The translations under genes were made by a program, and so were the position numbers. From the NCBI GenBank assembly GCA_951406725.2, contig OX597816.1, positions 12,710,001 through 12,774,000 on the forward strand: 64,000 nucleotides of DNA. Direction: 5' to 3'. The notes under the pieces are model-generated. The model searched no databases, had not been told where the DNA came from, and saw only the letters and a program-made list of their open reading frames with translations. How positions within the stretch are numbered: the stretch's first letter is position 1; each line of letters opens with the position of its first letter. Origin of the DNA: Octopus vulgaris (taxonomy: Eukaryota). This document shows positions 14,195 through 49,089 of this stretch, piece by piece.

Positions 14195-14502
<308 letters not shown>

Positions 14503-15230
14503 GAGAGAGAGAGAGTTACACATGTTATCCAAGTGACACTGGGGTACACAAATATACGATGCCCAATATATCTACACGTCGGATAAGGGTATATAAGGCA
14601 CATGCACCAAAGCCATATGTGCGCGACATGGTGATCTCATATCAAGATAAACAGTGCATGACCAGTTACAATTTTCCTCAGGTTGAGTAGCCTATCCTGC
14701 TCAGAAGGTTCTTGAATAAGGTTTTTTTTTGAATGATGTTGAAGGAAGCAACTATGTCTCCAGCGGTTAATTATTCCAACTCCAAACAATCCCTCTCAAC
14801 ACATGGCTATGAAATCTGCCCCACTACTCCTGCTCATGACCTTACAGGTGGGGCCCAGTTAGAATTTTCTTCAGGTTGAGTAGCCCATCCCGCTCAAAAG
14901 GTCCCTGAATAAGGGTTGTTTAAGGATGTTGAAAGAACCACCCATGTTTCCAGAGGTGAATTATTCAAACCCAAAAGAATCCCTCTCAACACATGGCTAT
15001 GATGCTCCCCCACTAATTCTGCTCGTAGTCAGAGATGCACATATCGTCAGCCATTAAGGGACATGCTCAACTGGTTAAGGTCAAACAACTGACAAGCAAA
15101 TCTGTGGTATTGAGCAGAATATTTGCTGTAGCCCATCTTTTACACCAAGGTAAAACATGTACATGATAACACTTTCAGTCAGTTAAGATCAGGAGCAATA
15201 AGAACCACCGCTGATACGGCACCAGAGCTT
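14503..15230 (-). mobile_element. AAT-associated ~555-bp non-coding element (family E) with internal ~190-bp duplication
   Basis: Reverse complement of 47897-48451; 3' end abuts (ATT)n; 14663-14840 duplicates 14845-15030. Confidence 0.85.
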
Positions 15231-15848: not shown

Positions 15849-16384
15849 CTTAACTGCTTGGAAGTGTTATCATGTACGTTGTTTTGTCTTGGTATAAAAG
15901 ATGAGCTACAGCAAATATTCTGCTCAATACCAGAGGTTTGCTTGTCAGTTTTTTTACCTTAACGAGTTGAGCATTTCCCCTAGTGGCTGATGATATCTGC
16001 ATCTCTGATCACAAGCAGAAGTAGTGGGGAGCATCATAGCCATGTTCTGAGAGGGACTCTTTGGGGTTTGAATAATTCACCTCTGGAAACATGGGTGTTT
16101 CGTTCAACATCTTTAAACAACCCTTATTCAGGGACATTTTGAGCGGGATGGGTTACTCAACCAGAAGAAGATTCTAACTGGGCCCCACCTGCAAGGTCAT
16201 GTGCTGTTTATCTTGATATGAGATCACCATGTCGCGTACATATGGTTGTGTTGCATGCGCCTAGTGTACCCTTATCCGACCGGTAATCATGATGGGTATA
16301 CTGGGCTTTGTATATTTTACCCCAGTGTCATTTTGATGGCATGCACTGCACTCTCACTCAATAATAATAATAATAATAATAATG

Positions 16385-16421
<37 letters not shown>

Positions 16422-16545
16422 TGATGATAGTAATGCATGTGCCTGGAGTACCCTTATCAGACGGGTAGTCATGATGGATATACGGGGCTTTGTATATTTT
16501 ACCCCAGTGTCACTTTGATGGCATGCACTACACTCTCACTCAATA
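15847..16545 (+). mobile_element. Family E: 5'-truncated copy plus a second 3'-only copy
   Basis: 15847-16359 and 16432-16541 both end CTCTCACTC-(AAT)n and both are preceded by AAT repeats. Confidence 0.88.
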
Positions 16546-25839: not shown

Positions 25840-26097
25840 AATAAATGGCTGAGAATTTGTTGTTCATGATATAAGGAAAATTGAATAAAACATCCACTGA
25901 CATTGTTGATATCTGCGCGGTTGATTAAAAATCATGTATAAGCAATTAAGACAGTATCTAAATAGAATAGTCATCTATGTATCATACTTAAAATATACAC
26001 ACTACTGACAGACCAGTTAAAGCAGTATTTGTCCTGAGATTGCATCAGTTATGGATTGGTGTCTTTAAAAGAATATATGTGAGAAAGAGAAGAAAAC

Positions 26098-26246
26098 ATT
26101 ATTTATATTATTTACACTTGACTGATATTTCACCTCATCTTGTTTGTTGTTAATACAACATTTCGGCCGATACACCCTCCAGCCTTCATCAGGTGTTTTG
26201 GGGAAATTTTGAACCTGGGTTCTCATTCCTAAGGTATTTTTCGATG

Positions 26247-26301
<55 letters not shown>

Positions 26302-26396
26302 TAATAATATTATTATCATTATTATTATTCAAGTCAGTGCCTGGAATTGAACTCGGAATCTTGGGGTTAGTAGCCCACGTTCTTAACCATTACGCC

Positions 26397-26399
<3 letters not shown>
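26098..26399 (-). mobile_element. tRNA-head/(AAT,GAT)n/hammerhead module, complete copy
   Basis: Minus strand: TGGCGTAATGG (A box)...GAGTTCAATTCC (B box), then microsatellite, then ACAC-CTGATGA-A-GGCTG..CGGCC-GAAATGTT-GTATT. Confidence 0.8.
26152..26198 (-). ncRNA. Minimal type I hammerhead motif
   Basis: CUGAUGA and GAAA core, stem II GGCUG/CGGCC, GUU triplet; C15.2 changed to U. Confidence 0.65.
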
Positions 26400-26463
<64 letters not shown>

Positions 26464-26464
<1 letters not shown>

Positions 26465-29400
26465 TATGCATTAGGTAGGCCATCTCAAGAGAGACACACC
26501 GCAAACTCTTACAGTATATGGAGAACACGGAATCAAGACAGTAGGCCCTATTTGGACGAGAACAAATTAGCAAATGTGAGGAGGGATATCTTTAGAAATA
26601 ACAGACTCACAGACAGTGAAATAAGCGCGATCAAGCACGCAACGGAAAATGACATAAATATAAGACACAAAGGAAATGAAGAATCAGATGAACAGTATAG
26701 CCCGCCACGAGGCTTAATTGAAAGACTGCCATCTGACCAAAGTACGCAAAGGCCTGAAGATACAAGAAATTCTATTGTACCTGTTAAAGATAGCCAGGAA
26801 AACGAAAAAACAACAGTAACTGAAGATCTCGCATTTGCTGAAGAACACAGAGAGTCTATGGCAGAAATGAGGCAGAAAATCCTGAATACGCTTGAAGTTG
26901 TAAGACATACAAGTATGAATGATAGAGAACCACTTCATAAACTCTCAAATTAAACCAAAATAAAAAACAAATCCAAATTGGCAACTATGTAACAAATGAA
27001 ATAATACGAGAATTAAAACCTGATTTTACTGAGTTAAATGAAATTATTTACGCTTCTGCTAGGGCAATTGAAACCAGCTGTATGCCCCCGAAAAAACAAA
27101 GAAAACAAAACCTGGGAAGAAATCAAACCTGGAGAAGTAAAATTGAAAAAGAGATTGAATTTATGAGAGGGGAAATATCAATATTAAATGAACTAATATG
27201 TGGAAATGATGTAAGATCCAGAACAGGAAGAAAGATGAAGAGAAAATTTGGATCCTCACCAAGAGAAGAACTGATATCAATAAAAGAAACGCTGAAACAA
27301 AAAGTCCAAGCAAAAGCCCAAAGAATACGAAGATTTGAGAAGAGAAACAAGTTTTACAAGCAAAATAAGCTGTTCACATCCAATGCCAAAACATTCTACA
27401 GAGAAATAGGGAAGGAGAAAGTAACCGTTAAAGACCCCCCACCCATGGAAGAAGTTCAAAACTTTTGGAAAAGGATTTGGAGTGACAAGAAGACGTACAA
27501 CATAAATGCAGACTGGATTATACAAACTGAAGGATCCTACCAAAATTTACAACAACAAGCATGAGAAGACATCACAATAGCAGACCTAAGAAAGGCACTC
27601 ACGAAGGCCCATAATTGGAAATCCCCCGGTAAAGATAGGGTGCCGAATTTCTGGCTCGCATCGCTCCCATGCGCACACGGTAAGCTAGTTCAGCTGCTCA
27701 ATGGAATTATGAGAGACCCAAAGAAAACACCTGAATGGTTAGCAAGTGGCATTACTTACCTACTCCCAAAGAATAACGAAACCAACCTTCCAAAAAACTA
27801 TCGGCCTATAACCTGTCTATCCACCACGTATAAAATCCTAACATCTATCCTGGCGGAGAAAACATATGCATTCATGGAGAAGAACGATATTTTCCCCATT
27901 GAACAAAAAGGGTGCCGCCGAGGCTCTTACGGATGCAAAGATCAACTGCTAATCAATCGTATGATCCTTGAGAACTGTCACAACAAGCGCAGAAATCTCA
28001 GCACCGCATGGATTGACTATAAAAAGGCCTTCGACAGTATACCGCATCCATGGATCTTGAGATCGCTGGACATCTTCAAAATTTCCCCTGTGATTTCAAA
28101 CTTCCTGAAACACAATATGTCGTTGTGGAATACGAATCTCCAATTATACCACTCTAATGGAGTACTTGCCTCAGAAAATATAAACATCAACTGTGGAATT
28201 TTTCGAGGTGACTCACTTTCACCTTTAATATTCTGCATAGCCCTAATACCCCTTACAAGTGAATTAAACAGAACAGGGTATGGGTATAAAATTGCCAATA
28301 AAAAAATAAGCCATCTATTTTATATGGATGACTTAAAACTTTATGGTAAAGACAATAATGAACTTGAAGGCCTATTGCGCACCGTGAAGGCATTCAGCGA
28401 TGACATCGGGATGGAGTTTGGACTTGAGAAGTGTGCCAAGGCAACTTTCCAGAAAGGGAAAGTGAAGACCACAAATTCAGTCGTGTTAGATGTTGACACA
28501 GTCATAAGAGAGCTTGAGCAAGAACAAACATACAAATATTTAGGGATAAATGAAGGCTCTGGTATTCAGCATGCAAGCATGAAAGAGGAAATCAGGAAGG
28601 AATGTTATAGGAGAGTTCATGCAGTCCTGAGATCTGAACTAAATGCACGTAACAAGGTGTTAGCTCTAAATTCCTTAGCAGTTCCAGTTGTTACTTATAG
28701 CTACAATGTGTTGAACTGGAATATGAGTGAAGTAAAGAATATAGATAGAAAAATACGCAAGCTGCTGAGTTGTAATAGGATGCACCACCCAAAGGCAGAC
28801 GTAGATCGCCTTTACCTTCCCAGAGCCCAAGGAGGTCGAGGCTTGATCCAATTTGAACTAGCTTACAAAACAACCACAATTGGACTGGCAAAATATCTCG
28901 AAATATCGAATGACTGGATGCTAAAGCTCGTGGAAAATCACGAGAGACGAAAGAAGCTTCATTCTATCATAAAGGAAAGCAAAAAATTTGCTATTGATCT
29001 CGTGCAGGATACCCAAACTGAACAACCCGAGGGAAGTACGGCAACTATTGTTGCAAAGAAGGTGAAAATGATGGCAATGAAAAAAGCGCACGAGCAATTG
29101 GCTGATAGGTGGGAGGAGAAACCTCTGCACGGCAAATATGTGACCCGCAGCAAACAAGCTGATGTTGACCAGAAACAAACCCATCAGTGGCTACGGAGCT
29201 CAGGGCTAAAAGCAGAGAGCGAAGGTTTCATCCTGGCTGCTCAAGATCAAAGCCTATTAACTCGGAACTACCAGGCCAATGTGATGAAAAATGGAGCAGA
29301 CCCAAAATGCCGATTCTGCAACGACATGATTGAAACAGTGGACCACCTAATCTCTGGATGTAAAGTCTTAGCACCAGTGGAGTATAAATTAAGACATGAC

Positions 29401-30048
29401 AGAGTTGGCCAATATCTCCACTGGCTAATAAGTCGGCATTACAATATCAAAACTGCCGGCAAGTGGTATAATCACCACCCTGAGGCTGTAACTGAAGGAG
29501 AAAATGTAACCATTCTGTGGGACTTTCCAGTACATACAGACCGAACCATCAAGGCCAATAAACCAGATATTGTTGTGAAAGACCAAAACAATAAAGTTTG
29601 CTTATTGATCGACATGAGCATCCCCTGTGATCATAATATCTCAGCGAAAGAGTTTGACAAGCTCAGAAAATATAAAGACCTACTCATTGAAATTGAGAAA
29701 ATGTGGCATCTCAAGGCGGTTACAATACCAGTGATCGTAGGAGCACTAGGAATGATCAAGAAGGGAACCGAAAATTATATGAGAATGATCCCTGGCTTAC
29801 CATCCCTGCAAGAAGTGCAAAAGATTGTCTTAACTGGTACATCACACGTATTGAGAAGAGCATTGTCGATGTGAGAACTGTTGCTGCTCATGTATTTTAA
29901 TTTAACTTTAAAAAAAAAAAAATTAAAAAAATGAACGAACTACTGAGTTTGGTTTAATGGCCTACCAATGTATACTATGAGTTTCTTTGCCCTAGGAGTC
30001 GGGAAGACACTCGGCAAGAAATGATAACAAATTTGAAAGAAGAAAAAA

Positions 30049-30051
<3 letters not shown>
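26464..30051 (+). mobile_element. R4/Dong-like RLE non-LTR retrotransposon, 5'-truncated, inserted in (AAT)n
   Basis: Single ancestral ORF broken by a frameshift near 26950 and an in-frame TGA at 27562; AAT repeats on both sides; 3' UTR hairpin TTTCTTTGCC..GGCAAGAAA. Confidence 0.93.
27640..29874 (+). pseudogene. Reverse transcriptase, CCHC finger and restriction-like endonuclease (744-aa open remainder of the LINE ORF)
   Basis: YRPITC, WIDYKKAFDS, GIF(R)GDSLSP, LFYMDDLK, YKYLG, CRFC..ETVDHLISGC, RHD, KPDIVV..D..K..KY. Confidence 0.93.
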
Positions 30052-30079
<28 letters not shown>

Positions 30080-30260
30080 TCGAAAAATAACTTGGAATGA
30101 GAATCCAGGTTCGAAATTTCCCCAAGATATCTGATGAGAGCTGGAGTGTCTATCAGCCGAAACGATGAGTTAACAACAAACAAGATGAGGACAAAATCTG
30201 TCAAAATGTAACTAATGTAAATAATGTACATAATTCCTCATCTCTTAAATATGGAACTGG
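30052..30260 (+). mobile_element. (AAT)n/hammerhead half of the module; inverted partner of 26098-26399
   Basis: CATCGAAAAATA..TTCCCCAAGATAT-CTGATGA-GAGCTG..CAGCC-GAAACGAT-GAGTT..AAATAT.GAACT; HHR at 30126-30171 with GUU changed to GAU. Confidence 0.8.
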
Positions 30261-31703
30261 ATGAGAAGAAAATCAATCCTAGAAGACAAAAGAGGTCGAA
30301 ATGCAAGTTGGCATTCTCAGGTGACTGATCTGTTAAAATTATTGATGAAAAATAAGGATTAAAATCAATGTAAGAAAAACAAACGAATTTATCTGACAAC
30401 CCAACGCGTGTGTATATGTATGTGTGTCTGTATGTATGTATGTGTGGGGGTATACATTCATGCATACATACATACATGCATACATTTATACATACATACA
30501 TATACCCTTACACGTATATGGCAACCATTGTGACATTCTTGAAATCATAGCTGTACGCATGCGTCGTTGTCTGTGCGAGTGTATGTTTCTATGCGAGATA
30601 ACAACACGGATGCACAGAAATGGACGCACGTGCGAATTCATGTAGCAATTCATGTAGCAAGATGTAACAAGCCTCAGCATCCAGTTGTGTATTAATGTAC
30701 ATGTAGGATGACAGAAATCGCAAAAGTTTAGTAGGTAAAAATATACGAAGTCCAGGATTTTAGATTAAAACAAGATGGTCGCATATTTGGAAAGTTACGA
30801 TGCAGTAAAAATGTTCCGGCATTTTAAAATCACAAAATTATAGAAAAAATAACACGAAATGTTAAACTGAACGATGAATACAAAATATCAAATGCAAATT
30901 ACAATGCTGTACTATTATAAAATTCTAAATTTATAAAATTATTGTATTATCAAATTTGAAAGAATGAAATTATTAAATTATCAAATTTAAAATTCATGAA
31001 TTAAAAGATTATGAAGTATGAAATTATAAAATTATAGAATTTTCAAATTATAGAATAGGAGAATTTTCAAATTATAGAATAGGAGAATTTTAAATGTGTG
31101 CGTGTTAGGGTTCTGGAAAATGAGAGAATTATGATGGTAATATGTGTGGAGGGTCACAAACGCTTAGCGATTAAGGGAGAGATATGATTCTATGTGGAAA
31201 CGATTCAACGCAGTGTGTTGTCTTTTAAATAGGCCTGGTGTAATTTTGTGTAGTGCTGTCATATAACAGACGAGGAAAAAGCCCCCCGTCCTTGGACGGT
31301 GCTGAGTTCTCAAACATTTAAACCAAATTTAACCTAACTTTGAGACACCAGCAAAAGAAGAAATAAGGATAGAATTTTTTTCTATTCCAAAGAAAAACGG
31401 TTTTATTCACACAAATATGCAAACGAATAGTTTAAAGTACCAGTAATGATAAGGCTGTTGACTGGGAGGACACAAACATGGTTTAAACAGTAAGCTTGGC
31501 AGGAAAGAAACGTGTCTTTAAGCAGTACAAAAACAACAAAAAATGGAAGGTGCATTTATGCACAGGCTGACGGAAGAAATGCAGGACAAAAACGGCTTTA
31601 TAGGTCGCATTCTCACCTGGAATCGATTTTTGTAATTTTTTCAAGACTTATACACGCCCTGATACCGTCGGTATCTACATATCAAATTTGAGCGCAATCG
31701 GAT

Positions 31704-31935
31704 GGAGGATTTTAGCACAAGACCAAAGCCTCCCTACCAGAAATCACCAAAAACATATAATGAAAAGAAACATAACAAGTAACTGCAGATTATGTGGAGA
31801 TGGACAAGAAAAAATAAATCATATTATCTCTGGCTGCCCAGTCCTGGCTAAGAAGGAATATATTCACAGACACGACAGAGTTGGAACCTACATACACTGG
31901 AAGCTATGCCAACACTATGGAATAACAACAGAAGA
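31704..31935 (+). pseudogene. Internal fragment of a second R4/Dong-like LINE (CCHC and RHD region)
   Basis: AQDQSLPTRN..CRLC....EKINHIISGCPVLA..YIHRHDRVG.YIHW aligns by eye to 29236-29450. Confidence 0.88.
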
Positions 31936-31946
31936 CACACACACAG

Positions 31947-32005
<59 letters not shown>

Positions 32006-32655
32006 TCCTAGAAGACACACACACACATACACAGACAGAACAGATTTTATATAATAGACTAGATAGCATCAGTTGCTTTTAGTTAAATTTGAAGCGTTTT
32101 CAAAAGGTAACTTAGTATATACAGGGGAAAATAGTTCGAATTTTGCGTTTTGGTCAGCCAGGGGTGGATCAATGTAAAGAATTTGTCTCTGGTGCAAATC
32201 AATAACGAAAGATTCTATTGTGTTCTGGTGCATGAGCTTACATTTGATGTTATATCTCAGGCATTTTGGCGTCTTTAAGGACAAAATATATTTGAAAAAG
32301 CTTTTCTTTTCTTTCTGAAAGAACGGATGTAATGGTGGATCCTTAGATTTCCAGCTGTTCTTCGTCAGGGCAATAAAAGCTATGCATATATTGTTATTCT
32401 CGACAAAGGTATTTTTACTCGGTGTATCGCAGATTTTGGAGTGAAGCATAGAACAATTATGGAGATTGCTACAGATCTAGTTTATCCTGGATTTTCGTTA
32501 TTCTTGACTGATAGGCATTTGGTATTGATTTAGTCATTTGTCTGGTGAAGCTATATGTGCAGCGATAACTGTGTTTAACAGTTCCCGTTGAATATCAGAT
32601 GGTCATGGATTATTATACGAAAATAGCAAGTGCACGCGCACAGGACAACTATGTA

Positions 32656-32699
<44 letters not shown>

Positions 32700-32798
32700 T
32701 CATATGTATCTATGCATATATATATACATACATACATGTATATATATAGATATAGATATGTATATTTGTATATATGTATATAAGTATGTATGTACATT

Positions 32799-32837
<39 letters not shown>

Positions 32838-32953
32838 ATACATATATATATGGATAGTGGGATAAATCGATAGTTAGATATGCATACACATATATGTGCA
32901 TATATGATATGTATGTATATATTTATATATGCATAAATACATATACAGTATAT

Positions 32954-32999
<46 letters not shown>

Positions 33000-33082
33000 G
33001 TATATATATTTGTATATACACATATATATATTTCTGCACACACACACACACATACACATATATATATATACATACATATATA

Positions 33083-33113
<31 letters not shown>

Positions 33114-33334
33114 GTGTATGTATGTATGTATGTATGTATGATACTCTTGAATATTTACGTTTTGATATCAATTGAGACACGTGTATTGATCGATGTTTTA
33201 ACAATTCACTTGTTTCTCTGCTCCATTGAACTTGTTGAAGTGTTAGCTGAACAAATTGGTTCATGTTAGTGGCCGACAACTACTTGATTACAGCGAGTTG
33301 TGCAATATATCCTTTTAGAAGCACAGACGAATAT

Positions 33335-33365
<31 letters not shown>

Positions 33366-33514
33366 ACGGAGAGAAGAGAGAGATAATTCACGGTGATAGC
33401 AGAAGATAATGCAGAGGAAAGAAGAGAGAGACAAGAGGTGTTGGTAAGACGGAAGTGAAAATGATAGTAAATGAAATAATATGTTAAAAACAAGCACAAC
33501 TAATAAACATTTTA

Positions 33515-34070
33515 AATTTTGCCACAGGGGCAGCTTGAGGGAGGTGGAGAAGAATCGATTACATCGACCCCAGTGCGTAACTGGTACTTATTTCATCGAC
33601 CTCGGAAGGATGAATGTCAAAGTCAACGTCACGGAATTTGAATTCGGAACGTAGCGACGAGCGAAATACCTATTTCTTTACTACCCACAAGGGGCTAAAC
33701 ACAGAGAGGACAAACAAGGACAGACAAATGGATTAAGTCGATTATATCGACCCCAGTGCGTAACTGGTACTTATATAATCAACCCCTAAAGAATGAAAGG
33801 CAAAGTCGACCTCGGCGGAATTTGAACTCAGATCGTAATGGCAGTTCATAATAATAATCCTTTCTACTATTGGCTCAAAGCCGGAAATTTGGGGTGAGGG
33901 GATGAGTCTATTAGATCGACCCTAGTACGCAAATGGTACTTAATTTATCGACCCCGAAAGGATGGACGGCAAAGTGAACCTCACGGAATTTGAATTCGGA
34001 TCGTAGCGACGGGCGAAATACCATTAAGCATTTTGTCCAACGTGCTAAAGATTCTGCCGGCTCACCGCTA
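33515..34070 (-). mobile_element. Cluster of SINE family B units (dimer plus monomer)
   Basis: Three repeats of ATCGACCC.AGT.CG.AA.TGGTACTTA and GGAATTTGAA.TC.GA. Confidence 0.85.
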
Positions 34071-34354
34071 TTAAATAAAACTAATAATATTAGTAACGTT
34101 GTTGAATTTGGGCATAGTGCCAGTAGTTTGAAGGTAAGGGATAGGTTGACTATATCGTCTCCAGTGCCGAATTGGTAATGGTTTTGTTGATCCCGGGAGA
34201 ATGAAATGTATGAACATGAACAAAGGGCTGTGATAGAAAATAAGAATTTCAGAATTCTGAGAATCTGATGAGATTTTCCATTGAAGACTGACCATACCAT
34301 TGAAGTACGAAGATGAGAAATGTTTATAGAGGACAAAACAACAAACTATGGAAA

Positions 34355-34611
34355 TACAGTTCTATGTTAAAAGTTGAGGAATTATGTACATTATTTACGA
34401 TATTTACATTTGACGGATATTTTTCCTCATCATGTTTCTTGTTAACACAACGTTTCAGCTGATATACCCTCCAGGCTTCATCAGGTGTCTTGGGGAAATT
34501 TTGAACCTGGGTTCTCATTACTAAGGTTCGCATTCTACGGGCATATGGCGTACTGGTTAAGAGCGCGGGCTACTTACCCCAAGATTCCAAGTTCGATTCC
34601 AGGCAGTGACT

Positions 34612-34708
<97 letters not shown>

Positions 34709-34787
34709 TGATAATAATAATAATAATAATAATGATAATAATAATAATAATAATAATAACAACAACAATATCGAAAAATACCTTAGG
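34355..34787. mobile_element. Inverted pair of the tRNA/AAT/HHR module
   Basis: HHR half on minus (34355-34527) lies back-to-back with tRNA head, (AAT)n and ATCGAAAAATACCTTAGG on plus (34539-34787). Confidence 0.82.
34444..34489 (-). ncRNA. Minimal type I hammerhead motif (best-preserved stems I and III)
   Basis: GACAC-CUGAUGA-AGCCUGGAGGGUAUAUCAGCU-GAAAC-GUU-GUGUU; palindromic AACGUU stem III. Confidence 0.72.
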
Positions 34788-35345
34788 TGAGGATGATGAA
34801 GATGATGATGATGATGATGATGATAATTGTGATGATGATGATGATTTTGACGATGATGATGATAATGATGATGGTGATGATGGTGATGATGATGATGAGG
34901 AGGGGGATGGTGATGAAGACGACAATAAAAATAGCCAACTTGTTTTAGTTTTCTCGCTAGCGTCTAAAATTGCATAACTTTTTGAATTATCAAAACGATA
35001 ATTATCACCATTTAATGTGATGTTTTCCTTTTCATTTGTTTTTACCATCCGATTAATTACAAGATTAATCATGTAAAAATACATTGGGATTCGAAAGAGT
35101 TATAATCAACATCTTCATCATCATCATCATCATAGCCGTCGCCAACATCATCGTCATCATCTTTGACATGAAGAACATCACCATCGTCGGTTGTCGTCGT
35201 CATAGCCATTGTCATCGCCGTTTACATTGTCATTGTTGTTATTTCCGTACCGAGAAGACACCGTTCTAATAATTTGATTTCTTTTTTAAATTGTTTCACT
35301 GTTTTTAAAAAGCCTACCGTGAAAAATAAACAGGTTTGTTCTTTT

Positions 35346-35770
35346 ACGAGATCTGATCAATAAGTATCCGCTCTGTCGCCATAGTAACGAAGCTACAAGC
35401 TCGCAGAGTAAAGCTGCTTGGCAAAGATTGACCATAAGCTCTGCTATGCATGCGCATTAAGTTTTAAGATTCTCGCTCACTTCCGCTGTCTACAACACAG
35501 CTTGGAATGAAGGTGTGTAGCGTGTGATCGTCGCATTAATCATGACAAAGTTGTCATGGCGATTCCTGTTCAGGGGCCTATGTGAAGTTGCAGAAAGTGT
35601 CTGGAGAGGAGTGTGTAAGGTACAAACAAGAGTACAGGGGGGTTCATATGGTTCCAAGATGGCCAAAAAAGTTGATATTGACGAACGTTCTGGGAGACCC
35701 GCAACCAGCAGAACTGTAAAAAAAAACATCGCAGATGTGCTTGCAGCCGTGAGGGGAAATCGTCGAATAT
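35346..35770 (+). mobile_element. mariner 5' remnant
   Basis: TA-CGAGATCTGATCAATAAGTATCCG TIR-like start; DERSGRPATSRT..NRRI N-terminal motif. Confidence 0.75.
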
Positions 35771-35774
35771 ATAT

Positions 35775-36106
35775 TTAAATATATATGAGCATATCTAGAT
35801 ATACAACTATATGCATGAGAATACATACTCTTTTACTCTTTTACTTGTTTCAGTCATTTGACTGCGGCCATGCTGGAGCACCGCCTTTAGTCGAGCATAT
35901 CGACCCCGGGACTTAGTCTTTGTAAGCCTAGTACTTATTCTATCGGTGTCTTTTGCCGAACCGCTAAGTGACGGGGACGTAAACACACCAGCATTGGTTG
36001 TCAAGCAATGCTAGGGGGACAAACACAGACACACAAACACACACATGCATATACATATATATATATATATATATACACATATATATACGATATGTATATA
36101 TATATG

Positions 36107-36143
<37 letters not shown>

Positions 36144-36500
36144 GTATATACATATATATACGACAGGCTTCTTTCAGTTTCCGTCTACCAAATCCACTCA
36201 CAAGGTATTGGTCGGCCCGGGGCTATAGCAGAAGACACTTGCCCAAGATACCACGCAGTGGGACTGAACCCAGAACCATGTGGTTGGTTAACAAGCTACT
36301 TACCACACAGCCACTCCTGCGCCTATACATGAAACAAAACATACAAATCTGCACATATAAATGCATACATACATACATACATACATACATACAAAAATAC
36401 CCTGTTGTTGATGTTGAAATCCCAATAAAGGATCTAAATGAGAAACTGTCTCTTTCTCTTTTGGCCAGATATCCTGGATTAAAACTGAATAATGACATAC
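35775..36500 (+). mobile_element. CATA-associated repeat (family F) interrupted by a SINE A
   Basis: Flanks of the SINE match 49215-49430. Confidence 0.75.
35826..36324 (-). mobile_element. SINE family A, full length
   Basis: Matches 13128-13545. Confidence 0.92.
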
Positions 36501-36567
36501 ATACTTACATTCATAGATACATATACACATACATACTTCATACATGCCTACATATCTACATATATAA

Positions 36568-36600
<33 letters not shown>

Positions 36601-36637
36601 TACGTACATGCATACGTATACAAGAATACTACATATA

Positions 36638-36921
36638 AAGTTGCGGCCAAAATGTTCAGAACGACATTGTTTTCGTCAGAAAAGTAGATATATTTTTTTA
36701 TCAAAGTTGTTTTATATTCTATAATGGGTTTTGCAGTAAATCACTAAATCATCCATAACTTTTGTATTATCCTCTCAAATTACACCAAAATCTCAGACAA
36801 TAACAATTGATATTGTATTTATTGTCTGTGAAAATTATAGAATATAAAACAACTTTGATAAAAACTTATAACTACTTTTCTGACGAAAACAATGCCGTTC
36901 TGAACATTTTGGCTGCAACTG
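36638..36921. mobile_element. Tc1/mariner-type MITE
   Basis: ~85-bp TIRs AGTTGC(G/A)GCCAAAATGTTCAGAACG..; TA on both sides. Confidence 0.85.
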
Positions 36922-39900
36922 TATGTATATTCAATTTTGGGAGATTAATCGATATGCGGGTATTCTATTTCGGATAATACAAAATAACCTAATAAGTATA
37001 TCTTACAGTAAACCCATGGTATCAGTTTGCACATCACGAAATAATACTTAAATGATATAACCAAAATTGCCAGCTGGGCATATAATGTACTTCATTATTT
37101 ATATCATACTTTAGTTAATACTTATATTTATTAAATATGAAGGAACTACACGTGTTATATATATATGCTTGTATGTACACGCACAAACGGACATACACAT
37201 CTCAAGTCAAGTAATAAGTTTACGTTATAATAAAGGTTACTAATGAAACAATTGTAGTAATACCAGGCAACTCATCCGTCTGTCTTTATTAAATGTGTCT
37301 GTGTGAGAATGTGTCAGTGTGTGCCAGTGCGTGTGTGTGAGTATGTGTGTGTGTATGTGAGTGTACGTGTGTGAGTGTGTGCGCGTTTGGGGAGAGTGTG
37401 TGTATGTGTGTTTATGTGTGTGCGTGTGTGTGTGTGTATCAAGAGAGTCAAAGAGAGAGATAGAAGCCAGAGGCAGACATACACACATACAGAGACACTG
37501 ACCGAGAGTCAGATAAGTACACCACAGATAAATAGATTTTACATTCACTCACAATTCTACACCTCTCTCTACATCCTCACGCATATGCGAACGGATATAG
37601 CCACATAAATACATACGTGTATTCCTGTACGTAAACTAATGATAAAATGCCTGAACCAGATGATGGTTAATTTTGGCTTGCTAATTTCGTTTGTGTCTAA
37701 ATTCAGCAAGTGTACCATTAATTAATCATAATTTTGGCTGTAACATATGATGCTGCTTAATTTTTTAAGCATTCATCTCTCCAGAAATTCAATTAACATC
37801 CAGCTCATGGCCACTTATACGTAGATGTATGCCTATGTCAAATTATTTTGGACTAATCACAATGATATTTGGAGAAAGCTCCATTGGTGGAACACAAGAA
37901 TGGAACGAAGCGAAAATATATTTTTGTTCTTTCGACTTAGCTCATTGCTGGTTGAGGTGACATTCAATCAAACGTACGTTCCAGATACGACCATCCTGAC
38001 GTTTTATAGAACTAGTAATGTCTTGGCCAATGCGTTTTCTGTTGTTTTGTTTTTTAGACAGTCGCTAGGTTGAAATATAATGAGATTTTCCTGTAGCTTT
38101 TAAAGAACCAAGAAATAATATAGAAGCTCTTTCATTGGCCTATTTTTGTTCCTGTTATTGTTGTTTGGCACGTGGTCAATAGTGAGCAGAGACATCTATA
38201 ATCAAATGTATTCCCTTATCGACCGTTTCATTTTTCTTCTGAAGTAAAGTACTGTCGCTGGATCCATAGGGTCGGTTACCTGGTTTCCATGGCGCATGTC
38301 TGGCCGAGATTACAATAATCCTTCTCAACGGGAGACCAGTTCATTCCAGGAATACTTATCTTCAGATGAGTTGACTGGAGCAACGTGAAATGAAGTGCTT
38401 TGCTCAAGAACACAATGCACAGCCCAGTCCATAAGTTGAAACCACGATTTTGCCATCAAAGTGGCAACAGGCAACACCCTAACCACTACGTCTTCTGCCT
38501 TTTTTAAGAAGTATGTTGGGTCACCCGCTCGGACGTGTTTTATCATATTTAAGACGGCAGGGTATACTTTCAGAAAATTTTTATTTCAGAAAGCTGTTAT
38601 TTCTAGCAATTTGAGTGTCCACTTGCAGAAGTTCTTCCCAGCCTTTTTTCCTACCAAGTATCCCTTTATAATTGAATAAAGATTTTCTATGAATTACAGG
38701 CTTTGAAACGCCTGACCACTCAATCTTTGAATTCAACCCACGTCCTCCTCAATCGTTTTCTTTGTGGGGTTAAAGTTGTATAAATTTCGACTGCCTTCGT
38801 TTACTTCTGAATTGTTCAACGGTGGTGCTGCTCCAGCATGACTGCAGCATTAACACTGAAGCACATTAAAGAATTAAAGAAAATAATGTAATCCTGTTTC
38901 ATGACTGTTGGTGTTGATGGAAATGGTTGTGGTGCTGATGTGTGCCAATATCAAAAGGAGTGTTTGTTGAAGTGCTTACATTTGTTAATAGTTTCCGATC
39001 TAGTGTTTTAGCTTGCATTAAAGGTTCTTCTATTCCAGATTAAAAACGTTTTTCTGAAATGAGCATATTTCGCACTGCCTGGTTCAGTTTATTTATTATT
39101 TCACCTTAGATTCTGTAGATGATGTTCGTGTTCCAGAGCAAAACAAATATCGTGACACACGAATACGACAAACACGTTTCACCTTTGTTGAAGCTAGTCA
39201 ATGCTGGACACACGATTGTCAACTGCTTAAACTGAGTTCGTGCCTCAATTTCTGCTTAAGTGGTTGACATTCAGGTTTATTAAATGTTTCAGTTGCGTTT
39301 GACATATTTTTCAAGAACTTGGAGTAAGTTTGAAATAACAAATTAAAATTTCGTTAATTTCTTTATTGCTAAAGACTGTTGCTTTTAGTATTAAAAGCAG
39401 AATAGGTAACATTATGCATTTGGTTGTATTACGATATCAGGTTTGTACAAAGAATATGAAATTTAAGTGCTTTAGTCCATGAGACAGTAAAGCGCTCCTA
39501 GGATGACATTTTGGTTATAAGTTTCGTAACCTATAAATTGAGCTTTTATAGTCTAGGTGAATGCAAATGTTTTACTTAAATAAGGCCACTGAAAGAATGA
39601 ATTATAATCAATCAAAAACTTAGAAATACCATAATCATGAGTGTGATGGAAAGACAAGTAGCTTGTGCTTTTTAAAGTATGGGCTTCATATTCTTATCAT
39701 TAATTAAATTGATCTTGAAGTAATCAATATATATATAAGACATGGGACCAAACGAAGAGGAGAATTTTACAGACAGATTATATTAGGTGAAGTAAAATGA
39801 GTAAATTAAATATTCGTAATTGAATAGAAATTGGCAATTAAAATATTGACATCTTAATTGTGCCAAATTGATACATGAGTGATTTCGTGTTGCTGTCAGT

Positions 39901-40690
39901 ATTACTGATGTTGTTGTAAAGAGTTTTATAGACTGTCGTTTTATGACAGCTTTCAGATATTGCAATGCTGTTTCCCCCTTTTAGGGTAAAATCTTAACAA
40001 TTCCATTTAACTACGTTGGTGAGCTTTACGAAATCTACGTTCGTGACATTGTTTTGAATCTGAGCCAAACCCTTGCACTCAATTCCCTTTCCAAACCTTT
40101 TAATTCCATTTTCTGTATCCCATTTCTTTGAATATGACAAAAGCAAAATGGAAAACTCATTTTAAAGTATCGTGACCGTTTTAGCTTTTTTTTTTAATCT
40201 ATTTTCAATTACTATTTTAATGTAGACAATATACTATAATGTAGTGTTGTATAATGTATTATAGAAACAATAGACTGTTGTGTAAAGTAGTGTAGTTAAT
40301 ATTAATGCTTTTGGAAAGTTACTTTATGTCCCGAGGAAATAATTCACTTGAATGTTCAACTATTTCAATATAAACCGTTTCATCTGTTCGTTTTACAGGT
40401 GTTTATTCTCTCTCACTCAGAACAGTAGGAACATTGCCAGAACCAGACTATTACCTGTGGCTACGTAGAAGAAATAGAATTTAAGGCAACTTGTTAACTG
40501 TGGTTTGAATTAGTAAAACTTAATTCAATAATAACAAAATATTGAATTCGTGTGAATAGGCACCCATGAATTGTAAGTTAGTATAAAGTTTCTGGAAAGC
40601 CATTCTGGTGATTAAAGTTAAGATGACTATTCATTTACAATGAACTACAGCTGAACTACAGTCTCTTATCACGACTTCTTTAGTTGTGAT

Positions 40691-41082
40691 GGATGAATGG
40701 AAGCACTCCGTCGGTTACGACGATGAGGGTTCCGGTTGATCCGAATCAACGGAACAGCCTGCTCGTGAAATTAACGTGTAAGTGGCTGAGCACTCCACAG
40801 ACACGTGCACCCTTAACGTAGTTCTCGGGGATATTCAGCGTGACACAGAGAGTGACAAGGCCGGCCCTTTGAAATACAGGTACAACAGAAACAGGAAGTA
40901 AGAGTGAGAGAAAGTTGTGGTGAAAGAGTACAGCAGGGATCACCACCATCCCCTGCCGGAGCCTCGTGGAGCTTTTAGGTGTTTTCGCTCAATAAACACT
41001 CACAACGCCCGGTCTGGGAATCGAAACCGCGATCCTATGACGGCGAGTCCGCTGCCCTAACCACCGGGCCATTGCGCCTCCA
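40691..41082 (-). mobile_element. tRNA-derived SINE, family D, young full-length copy
   Basis: TGGCCCGGTGGTTAGGGCAGCG..GTTTCGATTCCC head; TSD-like GTTGTGAT at 40683-40690 and 41085-41092. Confidence 0.92.
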
Positions 41083-41559
41083 CTGTTGTGATAGAGGATC
41101 CCTATCACTCGTAAACAATGTTACTATAAGGTTCCAAAGCGTAGCATAAATTAAACACACCGTGCTTCATGTTATCGTATGGAAATTGTTGCTTAGCCAT
41201 TGATCTTTAGTTTTTCAGCTTCAAATCAGTCTTAATGAATAAGAAAAGACTGATCTAGCCTTTCTTGTTTGTTTGTCCAATGTTTTCCATACCAGTGGCT
41301 ACATTTTCTGAAGTAGTTGCTGCTTCAAAATGGTACGGTACAACTTGAAGAAAATGTAGCACATATTTGTATCGGAGAATGAACATGTAGAAGCTACCTC
41401 AATAAGGTCCTTACGGATGGAACAAAATAAATGGAAATAAAAATAATTCCAGGAAGATACAGAAGGATGTGTAGAGAAAACAAGAAGTCACAGAGAATCT
41501 TTTTACTAAAATGAAAAAAAATATCTCATATATTTTCAAAACCAGAATGTTAGATATTT

Positions 41560-41769
41560 GTGACTGGGTAAGTTCCTGGCCCAGAGTAAAAGAAAATACA
41601 GAAGGATAAGTTAATTATGATTTTATTTAACTTATTCCTCTCTCAGATTCATACATTGCAGCCTACCTTCAGTTTTTCTAAGCCCGGTAAAAGAACACGG
41701 ACGTGTGGGTCTCCAATCAGGCATTTCGTGACACCATTAAAGCCAGGAATTTTTTAGCAGACCCTCGTA
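41560..41769. mobile_element. mariner-type MITE remnant
   Basis: Right end GCCAGGAATTTTTTAGCAGACCCTCG-TA; partial left mate AAGTTCCTGGC. Confidence 0.6.
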
Positions 41770-41870
41770 CACATACACACATCCTTCCATGATCAAGCCA
41801 GCCTAGTAAAAATTGCAATTTCATTTTCCCTGCAGTAAAGAAAAGTCCATTCCAAAGGCAAGTTGACAGC

Positions 41871-42022
41871 GCAGTTTTTTTTTTTGTCGGCAGCCAAAAA
41901 ATACCGGCATTTTTTCGAACAATTTTCCAGAAAAAATTATTGATTATTAAGTATTGCTAATTTTTTCTGGAGAATTGTTCGAAGGAATGCCGGTATGTTT
42001 TTGATGCCGACAAAAGAACTGC
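41871..42022. repeat. ~65-bp imperfect fold-back
   Basis: TTTTGTCGGCA..ATACCGGCATT..TTCGAACAATT.TCCAGAAAAAATT versus its reverse complement. Confidence 0.85.
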
Positions 42023-43261
42023 ACTTGCGCAGTGGATTTGAAAAAATTTAAATTTATAAGCAAGAGGCACATGCTGGATTTGCCTAGTACTTATATGTTT
42101 AATCTAGGCATACCTGTTGATGAAGACTTCGCCTAGCAAATTGTTTTATTTGCTAAAAAAAGTCAGACACCATGGTCCAGGAAATAGATGGTAAATGTTT
42201 TTATTTTTCATTCCCTTCGTATTTTTATCCCTAATAATGGTTTGGACTTTAGCTGTTCCTTCTAGCGTGAAATGAATCCTATGAAGGATACTTCTTATGT
42301 GTATAAATGTACACCATATATATATATATTCAAGAAGCACTTAAGCAAGTCTAGAATTTATTCAACAGAACAGACTTATTGATGTGATGTTCATTTCAAT
42401 TTATATCACAAGACGCTAGCGGTGTTTAATGTGGAGGAGAAAGGTCCATTTTGGAGAACATAAATACTTTTGGTTTACAAAAAGATTGTAAGCATACAAA
42501 CACATAGAGAGACTGGAGAAAACGGTTTGATGGTGCAGAATATTGGATAGTGATGTCTAAGAAAATTTTACGCTAATATTTGTCAATAAAGTATTTGTAG
42601 ATTTTTGCTTCTGAATGTCGGTTGCGATAAGTTAAGTAGATTGCATTTCAATACACGCGTAAAGCGATTCCAGGAAAGGATCATTGCTGTGATAAGAGAG
42701 CTGAGGCTATAAGAGCGAGGTTATACCTCTTAGTAGATCCAATAATTTCGCTATCAGGAGTTGTATCAGTTGAAGTTATCTATCTTAGCGAGTGAGAATG
42801 GAAAGTAGTTCAAACCAGCGGATGCTATCAGAGTAGCTGAGAGTCAATGCACTGGGTCAGAAAGATAATTTTCTCAAATATAGAATTCATTGCAGATTAA
42901 GCAATCAGTTATTTTTGGCAGAAATAATTGATTAACCCTTCACTGCCGCTTCATGTACTTATCTGAACAGACTGGAGCTTTCGTGTTGAAATCAATGCAA
43001 AGGAAAGAATAGACATTAGAAGGCATCATACTTTATCGCGTAAATCTTTAACATATAACATTATGGGTGATGAACAAGATTTGAGACAAACAAAAGTACC
43101 ATTAAATGATTGAATTTCATGTTAAACAGTTTCTTGTTTCAACTTCTCAATGAATGAAGAACAGATTCTGAGAAATGAATATTGATAAAATTTAGTTGTA
43201 ATATAACAGAGAGGAGAGCTGAATGTTCCATACAGTCCATAAGCAAAGTAACAGATTCTGC

Positions 43262-43380
43262 TTTCTTTCTTTTTTTCCTCCTTCTTATCATCATCATTTC
43301 AATTACCGTCGTCATCGTCGTTGTCGTTGTCGCTGTCATAGGCATCTTCGTCGCCGTCGTCATCATCATCGTCGTCGTCG

Positions 43381-43422
<42 letters not shown>

Positions 43423-43895
43423 CAAGCCTCACCACCGCAACCACCACTACCACCACCATCACCATCACCACCATCATCCTCATCCTCAACATCATCATCA
43501 TCATCACAAGCATCACCATCACCACCACCACCACCACCACTACCACCACCGTCGTCGTCGTCGTCTTCTCGTCATCATCATCACCATCATCAACATCATA
43601 ACCAACAGTAATTGAGTGAAATGAAATGTTGGCCACCATGATTATCATCATTGCCACCACCACCACCACCACCACCACCGACACCACCGCCGACACCACC
43701 ACCGACACCACCGCCGACACCACCACCGACACCATCATCATCATCATAGCAAAACAGTAATGATTGAGTGAAATGAAATGTTGGTCACCATCATTATCAC
43801 CACCACCGCTACCACCACCACCATCATCATCCTCATCATTATCATCAACATCATAACCAACAGTAATGATTGAATGAAATGAAATGTTGGTCAAC
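43262..43895. repeat. CAT/CAC/CGT trinucleotide field with a ~50-bp block repeated three times
   Basis: ACAGTAA(TGA)TTGA.TGAAATGAAATGTTGG at ~43605, ~43753 and ~43860. Confidence 0.9.
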
Positions 43896-44932
43896 CAGCC
43901 AAAGATTTCCGAGTTCGCATAGCCTTACCTATAGAGTTATTTCCTAGAAGACCTCCGTCTTTCCTTCCTGCCTTTCCGATACTTATTGATGCACCATGTT
44001 GCTTCCAGGAGAGTCCAAATTATCTGAAAGCTAAAAGAGAGAATAACTGCTCGGAACTCTGTACATTTCTGTTCGAGTTGGAAGTAATTTTATCCAAATA
44101 CTTCTCAGATCATTCCATGCTAACTTTCAACAAGGAAAGACATATGCACCTAAATCAGAAACCATTATCTATCTTCAATACAGGGTGGTAGATTGGGGTC
44201 GGTGTACTTAAAAAATTCCTTGCAGTAATCCGTCTGTTCTTTTCCTTACATTTGAAATTTCCGTCCCGTCGGGGTCAGTTTGCACAGCCCACGCTCCAGG
44301 ATCGATACGAGAAAGTATTAGTCAAGTTGTGGGATCGTTGTATCGAATAGCCTCCTTCCTTCCAAACTGCAAGCCTCCTGCCTAACTTAGGAACAGCTAT
44401 TTATCCTCAGGTCTCCCCTGGTCGCGCAAAGCAACGATTGACCAAGAACCTCTAGATGCTCTCAATGAAATATATGTCTACCGGTCTTAATAGAAAATGA
44501 GATACAAGACAAGACACTTGGTGTTCGGACAGTAAGACAACCAAAACAAAATTACTGAGAATTAAAAATCTTTTCATATGTCTCTACACGCAATACTAGA
44601 AACAACGCATATTTATCCAAAATAAATCAATGCTTCCAACCATGACCATTCCATTGTCTGTATATTCGACAATGAATTGCATAACATGTTCTTCCTTTTT
44701 CTCCAACTGTAATATGAAATATGATAAGAATGTTACTATTTCTAGCACAAAGAACGACCACGTAGAGGCTTCCATGTGGCTATTTACTCATCACAGCTGC
44801 ATAGAAAAGAGAATAAGTAAAATCCTTATATATTTACATTGTTAGTGTATTCTAACTCTCAACTGAATGAATTTCACAGCTCTTACTAAGAAGCTCATGA
44901 ACGTCACATCTCATAAATATATAAGTATTCTT

Positions 44933-45142
44933 ATAGCTGATCATGGATGGAAAAGTGGAGATCACTTTCTCCTGTGGGATGAAGTTAAAATAATCGACAG
45001 AGAACACTAATGGAAAACACGAAAACTAAAAGAGGCAGTACATATACTAGGACACAATAACCTCCTAAGCGGACCTAGTGTAGATATAAGTAGCATATGG
45101 GAACTGGTATTAAGGAAGAATGCAAAAATATTAGGTTTATAA
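44933..45142 (+). pseudogene. Penelope/Poseidon-type GIY-YIG endonuclease C-terminus
   Basis: IADHGWKSGDHFLLWDEVKIIDREH*WKTRKLKEAVHI..NNLLS...ISSIWELVL fits the PLE endonuclease tail pattern A.H....H.I.W...I.D.E...R..KEA.HI....L. Confidence 0.75.
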
Positions 45143-45171
45143 GCCCTAACATTCACTCTATAATTGCTCAT

Positions 45172-45236
45172 GGGCATAAGAGCGCAGGCTACTAACCCCG
45201 AGATTCCGAGTTCAAACCCAGGATGTGCCTTGAATA

Positions 45237-45318
<82 letters not shown>

Positions 45319-45860
45319 TGCTCAATACCACAGATTTGCTTGTCAGTTGAGCATGACCAGTTGAGCATGTCCCTTAGTGGCATAGCCATGTGTTGAGAGG
45401 GGTTCTTTGGAGTTTGAATAATTCACCTCTGGAAACATGGATGGTTCGTTCAACATACTTAACAACCCTTATTCAGGTTTATCTTGATATGAGATCACCA
45501 TGTCGCGCACATATGGTTGTGATGCATGTGCCTAGTGTACCCTTATCAGACGGATAGTCATGATGGGTATACTGGGCTTTCGTATAGTTTACTCCAGTGT
45601 CACTTTGATGACATGCACTGCTCTCTCACTCAATAAAAAAAAAATAATAATAATAACAATAGCAATATTAGCAAAAAATACCTTAGGAATCAGAACGCAG
45701 GATTGGGTTCAAAATTCTACCAAGACACCTGATGAAGGCTGGAGAGTAAATTAGCCGAAACGATGTGGTAACAACAAACAAGACGAGGAGGACATATCCG
45801 TCCAATGTAAATAATGTAAATAATGTACAGGACTCCTCCTCTCCAAAATATAGAACAAGT
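45172..45860 (+). mobile_element. tRNA/AAT/HHR module directly after the PLE endonuclease, with nested family E
   Basis: Head at 45172-45233 (A box deleted), (AAT)n, family E at 45318-45632, HHR at 45724-45769 GACAC-CTGATGA-A-GGCTG..TAGCC-GAAACGAT-GTG. Confidence 0.82.
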
Positions 45861-47319: not shown

Positions 47320-47812
47320 AACTACACGTGCGAAATAATGTGACAACAGAAATAAACGGACCGGTACCCTACGAAAATGACGACCGTCAAAATAATGGGC
47401 CGGACGTTGTACCTCATGTCCCGCAATTAAAACCCAAAAGACGTAAATGGACACGTGAGGAATACATTTCTATCTTACACGCATACTTCACAGCAATGCT
47501 CTACCCACAAAATGAAAATACAACAACACATACATATAAAATATGGAAGGAAAATAATAGAGATATAGACTTGGATACAGCAATGAACCCTAATAAATTA
47601 GCTAACGTACGAAGATAAACACCAGGACTTACAAACACATATAACATACAGAAAATTGCACTACTAGGCACTGCACACATCCTACGCAGAACACTTTCCA
47701 TACAGTAACCATCAGAGCATCACAACAAATCACAGCACATACCCAAGGCACACAGAGCTGCGCTCGGTAGTGAAGTGAAAGCACGCTATAAAAATAAAAA
47801 TAAAACTACTGA
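47320..47812 (+). mobile_element. Internally deleted R4/Dong-like element (N-terminus fused to C-terminus and 3' UTR) in (AAT)n
   Basis: KRRKWTREEY..YKIW..NKLANVRR joined at ~47615 to TPGLTNTYNIQKIALLGTAHILRRTLSIQ*; both parts match the ends of the 26464-29874 ORF. Confidence 0.88.
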
Positions 47813-47896: not shown

Positions 47897-47899
<3 letters not shown>

Positions 47900-48451
47900 C
47901 CCTGATGCAGTACAAGGCAGTGGCTCTCATGGCTTCTGATCTTAACTGATTGGAAGCGTTATCATGTACATTGTTTTGTCTTGGTATAAAAGATGGCCTA
48001 CAGCAAATATTCTGCTCAATACCACAGATTTGCTTGTCAGTTGTTTGACCTTAACAAGTTGAGCATGTCCCTTAATGGCTGACGATATGTGCATCTCTGA
48101 TCACGAGCAGAAGTAGTGGGGGAGCATCATAGCCATGTGCTGAGAGGGATTCTTTTGGGTTTGAATAATTCACCTCTGGAAACATGGGTGGTTCTTTCAA
48201 CATCCTTAAACAACCCTTATTCAGAGACCTCTTGAGCGGGATGGGCTACTCAACCTGAAGAAAATTCTAACTGGGCCCCACCTGCAAGGTCATGTGCTGT
48301 TTATCTTGATATGAGATCACCATCTCGCGCACATATGGTTGTGATGCATGTGCCTGGTGTATCTTTATCAGACGGGTAGTCATGATGGGTATACTGGGCT
48401 TCGTATATTTTACCCCAGTGTCACTTTGATGGCATGCACTGCTCTCTCACT
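47897..48451 (+). mobile_element. Family E, apparently full length
   Basis: (AAT)n-GCCCTGATGCAGTAC...CTCTCTCACTC-(AAT)n; the same 5' start recurs at 55866. Confidence 0.9.
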
Positions 48452-49089
48452 CAATAATAATAATAATGGATACGTGTGCGTATGTGTGTGCATGTGTGTA
48501 TGTGAGCTTGTGTGTGCATGCGTGTCTATGAGTGTGTATGTGTGTGTGTGTGAGTGTGTGCACGTGTGTGCTCTGTGTGTATGTGAGTGTGTGCGTGTGT
48601 GTGTGAGTGTGTGCTATGTGTGTATGTCTGTGTGTCTTGTGAGTGTCTGTGTGTGTGAGTGTGTGTGCGTATGTGTGTGTGTGAGTGTATATCAAGAGAG
48701 TCAGAGAGAGTTTATTAAAAAAATGGATACAATTTCAACTTCCGTAAATGTTAATTCACTGAATAATTGGACATCTCTTAATTCGGTCGATGTTTTCATT
48801 GAGTGGAACTATTTTTCATCCACTTTGTGTAGATCTCCCACCAGTCCACTGTTACAATCTTAAAATCTGTATTACAGCACGTGTATTTCGCTTGGCGGTT
48901 TGGGACTTTTAATGCTAATAGTTATCGAAGATAAAATACTTACGTTGCAGAATAAATTTGAATTCATAGAAATATATTTGCTTTTTTTATAAACTCTGGC
49001 CATTCTTTTCCGATTGTAAAACAATAATGTTGTCTTGATGCTATTCCATTGTCACGAAGGATAATTGTGCACAATTATGCTACATCAAA

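Follow-up and report, generated by a model that had tools for sequence, protein, structure and literature searches.

Three loci in a 64,000-nt stretch of the Octopus vulgaris genome (contig OX597816.1, positions 12,710,001 to 12,774,000; hereafter the window) carry the same short composite repeat, consisting of a tRNA-like head, an (AAT)n spacer and a tail with a hammerhead ribozyme (HHR) motif. This raises the question as to whether the module is the terminal repeat of a Penelope-like element (PLE), a short interspersed nuclear element (SINE) in its own right or a self-cleaving retrozyme, and which RNA polymerase (Pol) would transcribe it. The original prediction, made from the letters of the window, had read it as a Penelope pseudo-long terminal repeat (pLTR) in which a tRNA-like head is combined with a hammerhead of the minimal type I. 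Linkage to an open reading frame (ORF), the hammerhead features and an alignment to tRNA-Arg all support that reading. We regard it as virtually certain that the module is the pLTR of a Penelope-clade element. The family is an abundant, decayed one of a known PLE type, and its new part is an unusual captured tRNA head that marks the probable RNA start. Genome-wide counts refer to the surrounding genome of 2.8 Gb in 227 contigs, and positions in the tail are written T1 onwards and those in the head as plain or signed numbers.

The repeat is the terminal repeat of a coding Penelope element

The link to a coding element is visible in the window itself, where the 3' end of a Penelope ORF (44932..45142, plus strand), comprising a GIY-YIG C-terminus (IADH..W..VKIIDRE..LKEA..) and a stop codon, lies directly upstream of the third head, a remnant absent from the original prediction. 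With this endonuclease (EN) and head stretch as the query, which contained the head but not the tail, a tail followed in 27 of the 29 other loci found, and a 5'-truncated reverse transcriptase (RT) lay upstream. In 132 junction matches the ORF is directly preceded on its 5' side by tail sequence, and the pLTR repeat occurs on both the 5' and 3' sides of the ORF, in tandem as well as inverted arrangements. Linkage of head and tail, proposed earlier as a check, is likewise borne out, with a tail downstream in 26/30 head-selected loci and a head in 74/111 arms that reach the spacer.

The majority sequence of 63 segments gives a single open frame of 796 codons that is continuous with the tail and runs upstream through it to an ATG at T20, which places the hammerhead within the reading frame. 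The frame contains SLDV, MGSPLS and YVDD, followed by CVYSIPCSCG..YKGET..EH..ADH, corresponding to an RT and then a C-terminal GIY-YIG domain of the two-Cys/two-His kind; a linker CX2-5CxxC finger was not seen when the frame was judged by eye. Most of the 56 homologues have RVT_1, PF28514 and PF26215, and one of them, P0003, shares an N-terminal peptide (TPDDG..WPKRCV vs. TPDEG..QPKRCV). The Pfam GIY-YIG match on P0003 is weak (E=0.23), and four natural PLE fragments gave no match in Pfam; a PDB search likewise gave nothing. The element unit of ~2.7 kb reads, in order, tail (with the ATG at T20 and the hammerhead in frame), RT, GIY-YIG, stop codon, head, (AAT)n and tail. Two loci, L160 and L178, begin at the head, cross the tail and enter the ORF, which is how a source locus should look.

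The family is large. A 38-nt stretch of the head has 438 exact matches in the genome and a 45-nt hammerhead consensus has 915, with none for either reversed control, so that the consensus originally drawn up by eye is indeed the genome majority. An unselected sample of 400 kb, taken at round coordinates from contigs C1-C16, contained seven loci, which extrapolates to ~49,000 loci (95% range 20,000-100,000), and four perfect cores among 128 unselected arms imply ~29,000 HHR-bearing arms; the genome holds roughly 30,000-50,000 copies, whose divergence from the majority is 5-7%.

The hammerhead motif

The majority hammerhead has an extra base after A9, G10.1-C11.1, a palindromic C15.2-G16.2, a 5-bp stem I and a 6-bp stem II. 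It has everything that defines a minimal type I hammerhead (CUGANGA, a G-C closed stem II, GAAA, NUH and a stem I of 4-5 bp), and all features listed for metazoan minimal hammerheads are present (PMC4209133). The motif is intact in 28/117 unselected arms and in none of the window copies. Eleven hammerheads from other PLE-type families, four of them picked by eye for their stems, share the core, and their stems covary, with 42/44 and 30/44 positions paired vs. 31 and 18.6 after shuffling. Divergence is alike in the core (70/1336, 5.2%) and in its flanks (390/8252, 4.7%), an outcome that the original prediction had counted as adverse, yet the comparison is uninformative for the claim because copies decay neutrally after insertion. 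The sole common variant, U7->A, marks a subfamily, lies at the free N7 position and causes a conservative D-to-E change. The minimum free energy cofold (-29.2) is more stable than the designed dimer (-20.7). Cleavage by this hammerhead would be expected in a dimer or with the assistance of protein, and not otherwise.

Eight other HHR-like sites in the genome have no linked head, but they make a weak control because no PLE ORF lies within 700 nt of them. Loci L225, L226, L227 and L231 carry other minimal-hammerhead motifs with a different stem II and no PLE ORF within 700 nt upstream. A full-length metagenomic PLE (L233) has identical minimal hammerheads in both pLTRs, at 195 and 2986. Just before the octopus hammerhead, the 11-mer CCAGGTTCGAA at T28-38 (e.g. 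1864-1874 of L043) equals the 5' side of the tRNA-Arg T-arm and constitutes a second B-box-like motif.

A probable RNA start at the tRNA-derived head

Aligned from tRNA position 1, the head matches tRNA-Arg(ACG) genes of the same genome, which were located with a search motif, in 49 of 68 columns (72%), and the alignment score of 62.5 compares with a shuffle maximum of 42.5. The cloverleaf is lost, and TGGCGTAGTGG and GTTCGATTCC in the head agree with the consensus of the A and B boxes. Among 93 arms that reach +5 and were not ORF-selected, 64 start at -9..+5 vs. 4.3 expected from background; another ten start at -20..-10, mostly as fold-back alignments, and 19 run on. These counts come from the 315 of 386 arms that were kept once duplicates and arms truncated by the edge of a locus had been removed. 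The peak is present in head-selected (24/30), tail-selected (18/25) and unselected (20/37) arms, and in L067, L101, L109, L157 and L166 the junction falls exactly at G-6. Such a pile-up of 5' starts points to an RNA 5' end at this place, and a true RNA start at the head is in our view very probable. Judging from sequence, the tRNA-Arg-derived segment between the stop codon and the hammerhead is likely an internal Pol III promoter with RNA from -6, and Pol III is the polymerase that we favour, though with some reserve. Of the earlier claim that the repeat has a Pol III promoter of its own, the part on the promoter gains indirect support from the pile-up at the head, while transcription by Pol III itself is what we infer.

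The lack of T4 terminator signals fits a Pol III transcript, if loosely. TTTT is absent from the majority sequence of head, tail and ORF, the ORF having none where 2.7 would be expected under synonymous shuffling (P=0.034). In a comparison set of 79 related PLE loci from metagenomes, all 12 with enough 3' sequence (~seven families) lack a B box and carry T4 runs downstream of the ORF, and the ORFs contain 231 T4 runs in 96.9 kb. The gap is nevertheless weak evidence, since GGGG is likewise absent from the octopus ORF (P=0.29) and 17 of the 79 related ORF stretches, two of them ~2 kb long, also lack T4.

Besides these two caveats, several observations weigh against Pol III, or against any start at the head. 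Conservation of the A and B boxes relative to tRNA (18/21 tRNA-like columns) is not significantly better than that of the rest of the head (31/47). A palindrome, TGCCC-AC-GGGCA, spans the start, with a fold-back there in many copies. In three RNA-seq runs of one study, reads come equally from both strands, 74-78% run on into the flanks and no piled or discrete RNA ends were found, which together suggest passive co-transcription; read depth does step at the head, reflecting copy structure and not initiation. Finally, most of the loci are top-scoring or exact-match picks, and the arms of one pair are non-independent.

A TATAA lies exactly 28 nt before G-6, so a Pol II start would be possible at the same base. 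In the window this motif is within the Penelope ORF end (45138-45142, plus strand). The only mapped Penelope promoter, that of Drosophila virilis, is Pol II-like (PMC2377424). It could be, then, that the start at G-6 is real but driven by Pol II from this TATAA, the head being a passenger, i.e. a captured SINE or tRNA fragment; TATA- or CCAAT-like motifs seen by eye before the hammerhead in relatives would agree with this, as would the need of the ORF to be translated. We nonetheless consider a Pol II start unlikely. The start coincides with the tRNA 5' end and precedes by 13 nt an A box of consensus type, to which a consensus B box is spaced as in a tRNA. As a TATA element TATAAG is weak, and the unit is free of TTTT. 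Upstream TATA elements also serve Pol III.

Could the starts instead be piled up without any RNA start, through RT stalling or cDNA fold-back at the palindrome? A longer imperfect hairpin at -17..+17 extends it, ~17 of 76 short arms show a fold-back, and RNA reads contain head-to-head joints at 1742 (263 reads in X21). Against this, solo copies and arms with a tail-cut partner start at the same place without fold-back. A hairpin stop would be expected at its 3' base, +17, where the hazard is ~0.9 per 100 nt vs. 6.6, and an RNA:DNA hybrid should hold against a stem of 5 bp whose loop is 2 nt. This makes stalling or fold-back improbable as the source of the peak, and we retain an RNA start at the head.

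A more far-reaching version of the Pol III start holds that in an autonomous coding Penelope a captured tRNA-Arg promoter replaced the Pol II promoter and Pol III terminators were eliminated, the whole 2.7-kb unit being a Pol III transcript; this we offer tentatively, as a possibility that we do not expect to hold.

Two further observations concern tRNA-Arg genes and the flank of the head. A cluster of more than 20 tRNA-Arg(ACG) genes, many spaced by ~206 bp, is located at C2:211887730-211907122. The pLTR sequence at -17..-1 (e.g. window 45150-45171) is similar to head 0-17 read as its reverse complement, which would suit a head that had a fold-back end on its entry into the PLE.

Copy ends and the short copies

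The 277 arm ends are bimodal, with 138 at T174-184, 124 at T136-162 and 15 elsewhere, and 46 of 56 inverted pairs combine one long with one short end (P=4e-10, 50 classifiable pairs). A tail at one end and inverted pairs have been described for PLEs (PMC8557442, PMC11167929), and in the anole PLE the tail marks two internal RT start sites (PMC11167929). The combination of one long and one short end matches these published tails, and we read it as the PLE 'tail' signature.

The original prediction had also proposed that the copy end is made by self-cleavage, and had offered as an alternative a retrozyme or SINE ended in this way. Neither agrees with the genomic copies. Ends lie 50-95 nt beyond the hammerhead cleavage site, which argues that self-cleavage is not their maker; a mere 2/277 fall at T88-92, and starts just past the site (T90-99) show no excess, with 10 counted where 6.3 were expected (P=0.10). 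In the anole PLE unprocessed RNA is the main substrate (PMC11167929), in agreement with ends away from the cleavage site. A frequent 3-nt loss at the cleavage site was considered as a cleavage scar and rejected, the GTT in question being a unit of a mini-repeat that also expands.

In the proposed mechanism, transcription would begin at the head of an upstream pLTR, and the RNA would extend across the tail and on into the ORF. The two strands of AT-rich DNA would be cut by the PLE protein. Reverse transcription would begin at two internal sites, near T184 and T140-158, which are suggested by the anole PLE and by the ends seen here, and would run off the RNA 5' end, giving head-to-tail copies of ~270-300 nt, frequently arranged as inverted pairs. 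In tandem arrays, priming in a downstream pLTR would yield the copies that bear the ORF. The template is probably uncleaved RNA, and the hammerhead would leave the copy ends unset.

Are the short copies an independent SINE, with short source genes of its own and mobilised in trans by the PLE? With a tRNA-related head and both boxes at their 5' end, they share one defining trait of tRNA-derived SINEs. They also dominate (11/111 spacer-reaching arms extend past -20), keep both boxes, and differ from ORF-linked arms in frequency at a few sites (uncorrected P 0.002-0.04). On the other side, the same two subfamilies are present in short and ORF-linked arms, whose divergence is 5.7% vs. 6.9%, no foreign 3' flanks are shared between different loci, and RNA past the RT start sites, which the protein of the anole PLE requires (PMC11167929), would be missing from short copies. 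An independent SINE is therefore quite doubtful, a shade more so than a stalling artefact. Owing to the shared subfamilies and the lack of foreign 3' transductions, the short copies look, from their sequences, like routine products of the coding family. Inverted 'GT' loops were considered as proof of secondary source genes and rejected, as one ORF-linked copy has the loop too. The alternative of a retrozyme or SINE ended by the hammerhead is barely credible: the source sequence does have an intact minimal hammerhead, but, besides the ends and starts given above, copies are mostly solo or inverted rather than tandem monomers delimited by HHR sites.

Relation to known elements

Penelope/Poseidon PLEs with minimal hammerheads, among them Poseidon_Ac, share most of this architecture (PMC4209133, PMC11167929): an ORF for RT plus GIY-YIG at the C-terminus, with a pLTR at both ends; a minimal type I hammerhead with an extra base before stem II, G10.1-C11.1 and a palindromic 15.2-16.2; overlap of the hammerhead with the ORF start; a 30-40-nt tail at one end; and inverted 5'-truncated partners. 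The octopus element differs in the tRNA-Arg-derived A/B-box segment of its pLTR upstream of the hammerhead, with 5' ends piled there; none was present in the related PLE loci checked. The SM-alpha/Sj-alpha repeats of Schistosoma also place a Pol III-type promoter before a type I hammerhead in a short repeat, but they are tandem, non-coding and released by cleavage (PMC6765202), whereas the octopus module is integral to a coding PLE, has a minimal hammerhead and ends at RT start sites. In the literature covered, Pol III promoters in terminal repeats are known only for non-autonomous LTR elements, the TRIMp3 group (Cassandra, Helenus, Ajax), where they derive from small RNAs and where autonomous partners are argued to need Pol II (PMC10886601); here the repeat is a PLE pLTR common to a coding element. 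Non-LTR retrozymes are likewise short, PLE-pLTR-derived and HHR-bearing, but are defined by tandem HHR monomers, and the part of their description covered has neither 'tRNA' nor 'promoter' (bioRxiv 10.64898/2026.07.22.740005).

In full-text literature searches, no PLE was found described as having a tRNA-derived or Pol III promoter in its pLTR, nor did any account of hammerheads in cephalopod PLEs turn up, in line with the earlier remark that the module is not known to have been described in this group. The term 'hammerhead' does not occur in the supplement of PMC13282606.

A SINE name may already exist for the short form, given without reference to PLEs. Octopus tRNA-derived SINEs OK, OR1 and OR2, the latter two tRNA-Arg-like, are reported to have been described by Ohshima and Okada in 1994, and by that account they share with our module a tRNA-derived nature and a similar size and copy number. 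OR2 is a CORE SINE (PMC4758252), which the module, judged by eye, is not. A different tRNA-Arg-like SINE head, found at ~100-175 of L232 and in the flank of L135, is a candidate for the published OR families.

SINE tails have so far been tied to long interspersed nuclear elements (LINEs); if our reading is true, a PLE-driven SINE-like class would be added. The octopus family would then connect PLE pLTRs with Pol III/hammerhead repeats, a link so far missing, and expression of a retroelement ORF from a Pol III RNA would become testable. If the whole unit were a Pol III transcript, its SINE-like short products would show directly how SM-alpha-type repeats arise from PLE terminal repeats. With copies in the tens of thousands, frequently inverted pairs located within host transcripts, the family probably also gives rise to double-stranded RNA in this animal.

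The module in the window and its neighbours

All pieces of the recurrent module described in the original prediction were found again at its three window loci, with tails 77-88% and heads 82-90% alike (E 1e-11 to 1e-47). As had been stated, no copy is perfect: two of the window hammerheads lack U16.1 and two have stem mismatches. Locus 1 is an inverted pair. Its minus arm (26399-26096) consists of the head (positions 5-74 with both A and B boxes, 26330..26399), a spacer of (AAT)n/(GAT)n sequence (26246..26329) and the tail T1-T150 with a short end (26096..26245), whose minimal hammerhead (26152-26197) has a stem I mismatch and a changed C15.2. Opposite lies a plus-strand arm with tail only (30079-30259; T1-T182 with a long end, 30079..30259), in which the hammerhead lacks U16.1 (30126-30170).

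At locus 2, a minus-strand tail with a long end (T11-T184, 34355..34527), whose hammerhead has an intact core and a stem II damaged by a mismatch (34444-34489), is followed on the plus strand by a head from tRNA position 1 (34539..34613), an (AAT)n spacer and an 18-nt tail stub without hammerhead (34614..34787, the stub at 34770-34787), the remaining tail being missing. Locus 3, on the plus strand, follows the ORF end with a 6-nt leader and head from which the A box is deleted (45166..45235, with 45166 the putative start base G-6), an (AAT)n spacer (45236..45673) interrupted by a 313-nt piece of another repeat family (45320-45632), and the tail T5-T180 (45674..45856) with a hammerhead lacking U16.1 (45724-45769). 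Among the 150 of 273 Rfam window matches listed there was no hammerhead or tRNA, all three Rfam matches on a near-consensus module copy were unrelated, and ARAGORN reported no tRNA in the window and did not detect the head at relaxed thresholds either.

The ORF at 26464-29876, on the plus strand between the two arms of locus 1, was considered as a partner Penelope and rejected; it belongs to an unrelated LINE with a restriction-like endonuclease (RLE; 26464..30049), presumably of the R4/Dong-like clade, and the 26098/30052 pair flanks no Penelope ORF. It encodes an RT (Pfam RVT_1), a weak zf-RVT, a CCHC knuckle and a PD-D/ExK-like end, and the LINE is near-intact, with premature stops near 26951 and 27562. 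Since (AAT)n flanks it on both sides, this LINE, which is not part of the module, was inserted in the spacer of the plus arm. The 3' end of a close copy of it is present within the spacer of L029, and that of another family in L007, L008 and at 47700-47811 of the window. A non-coding repeat of ~550 nt bounded by (AAT)n occurs in the window at 47899-48453, 14502-15115, 15922-16542 and 45320-45632, and also in the Penelope spacer of L011, L025 and L057, which suggests that elements targeting (AAT)n use the spacer for insertion. A 134-bp imperfect palindrome at 41882-42015, found via a spurious Rfam miRNA match, is possibly a miniature inverted-repeat transposable element.

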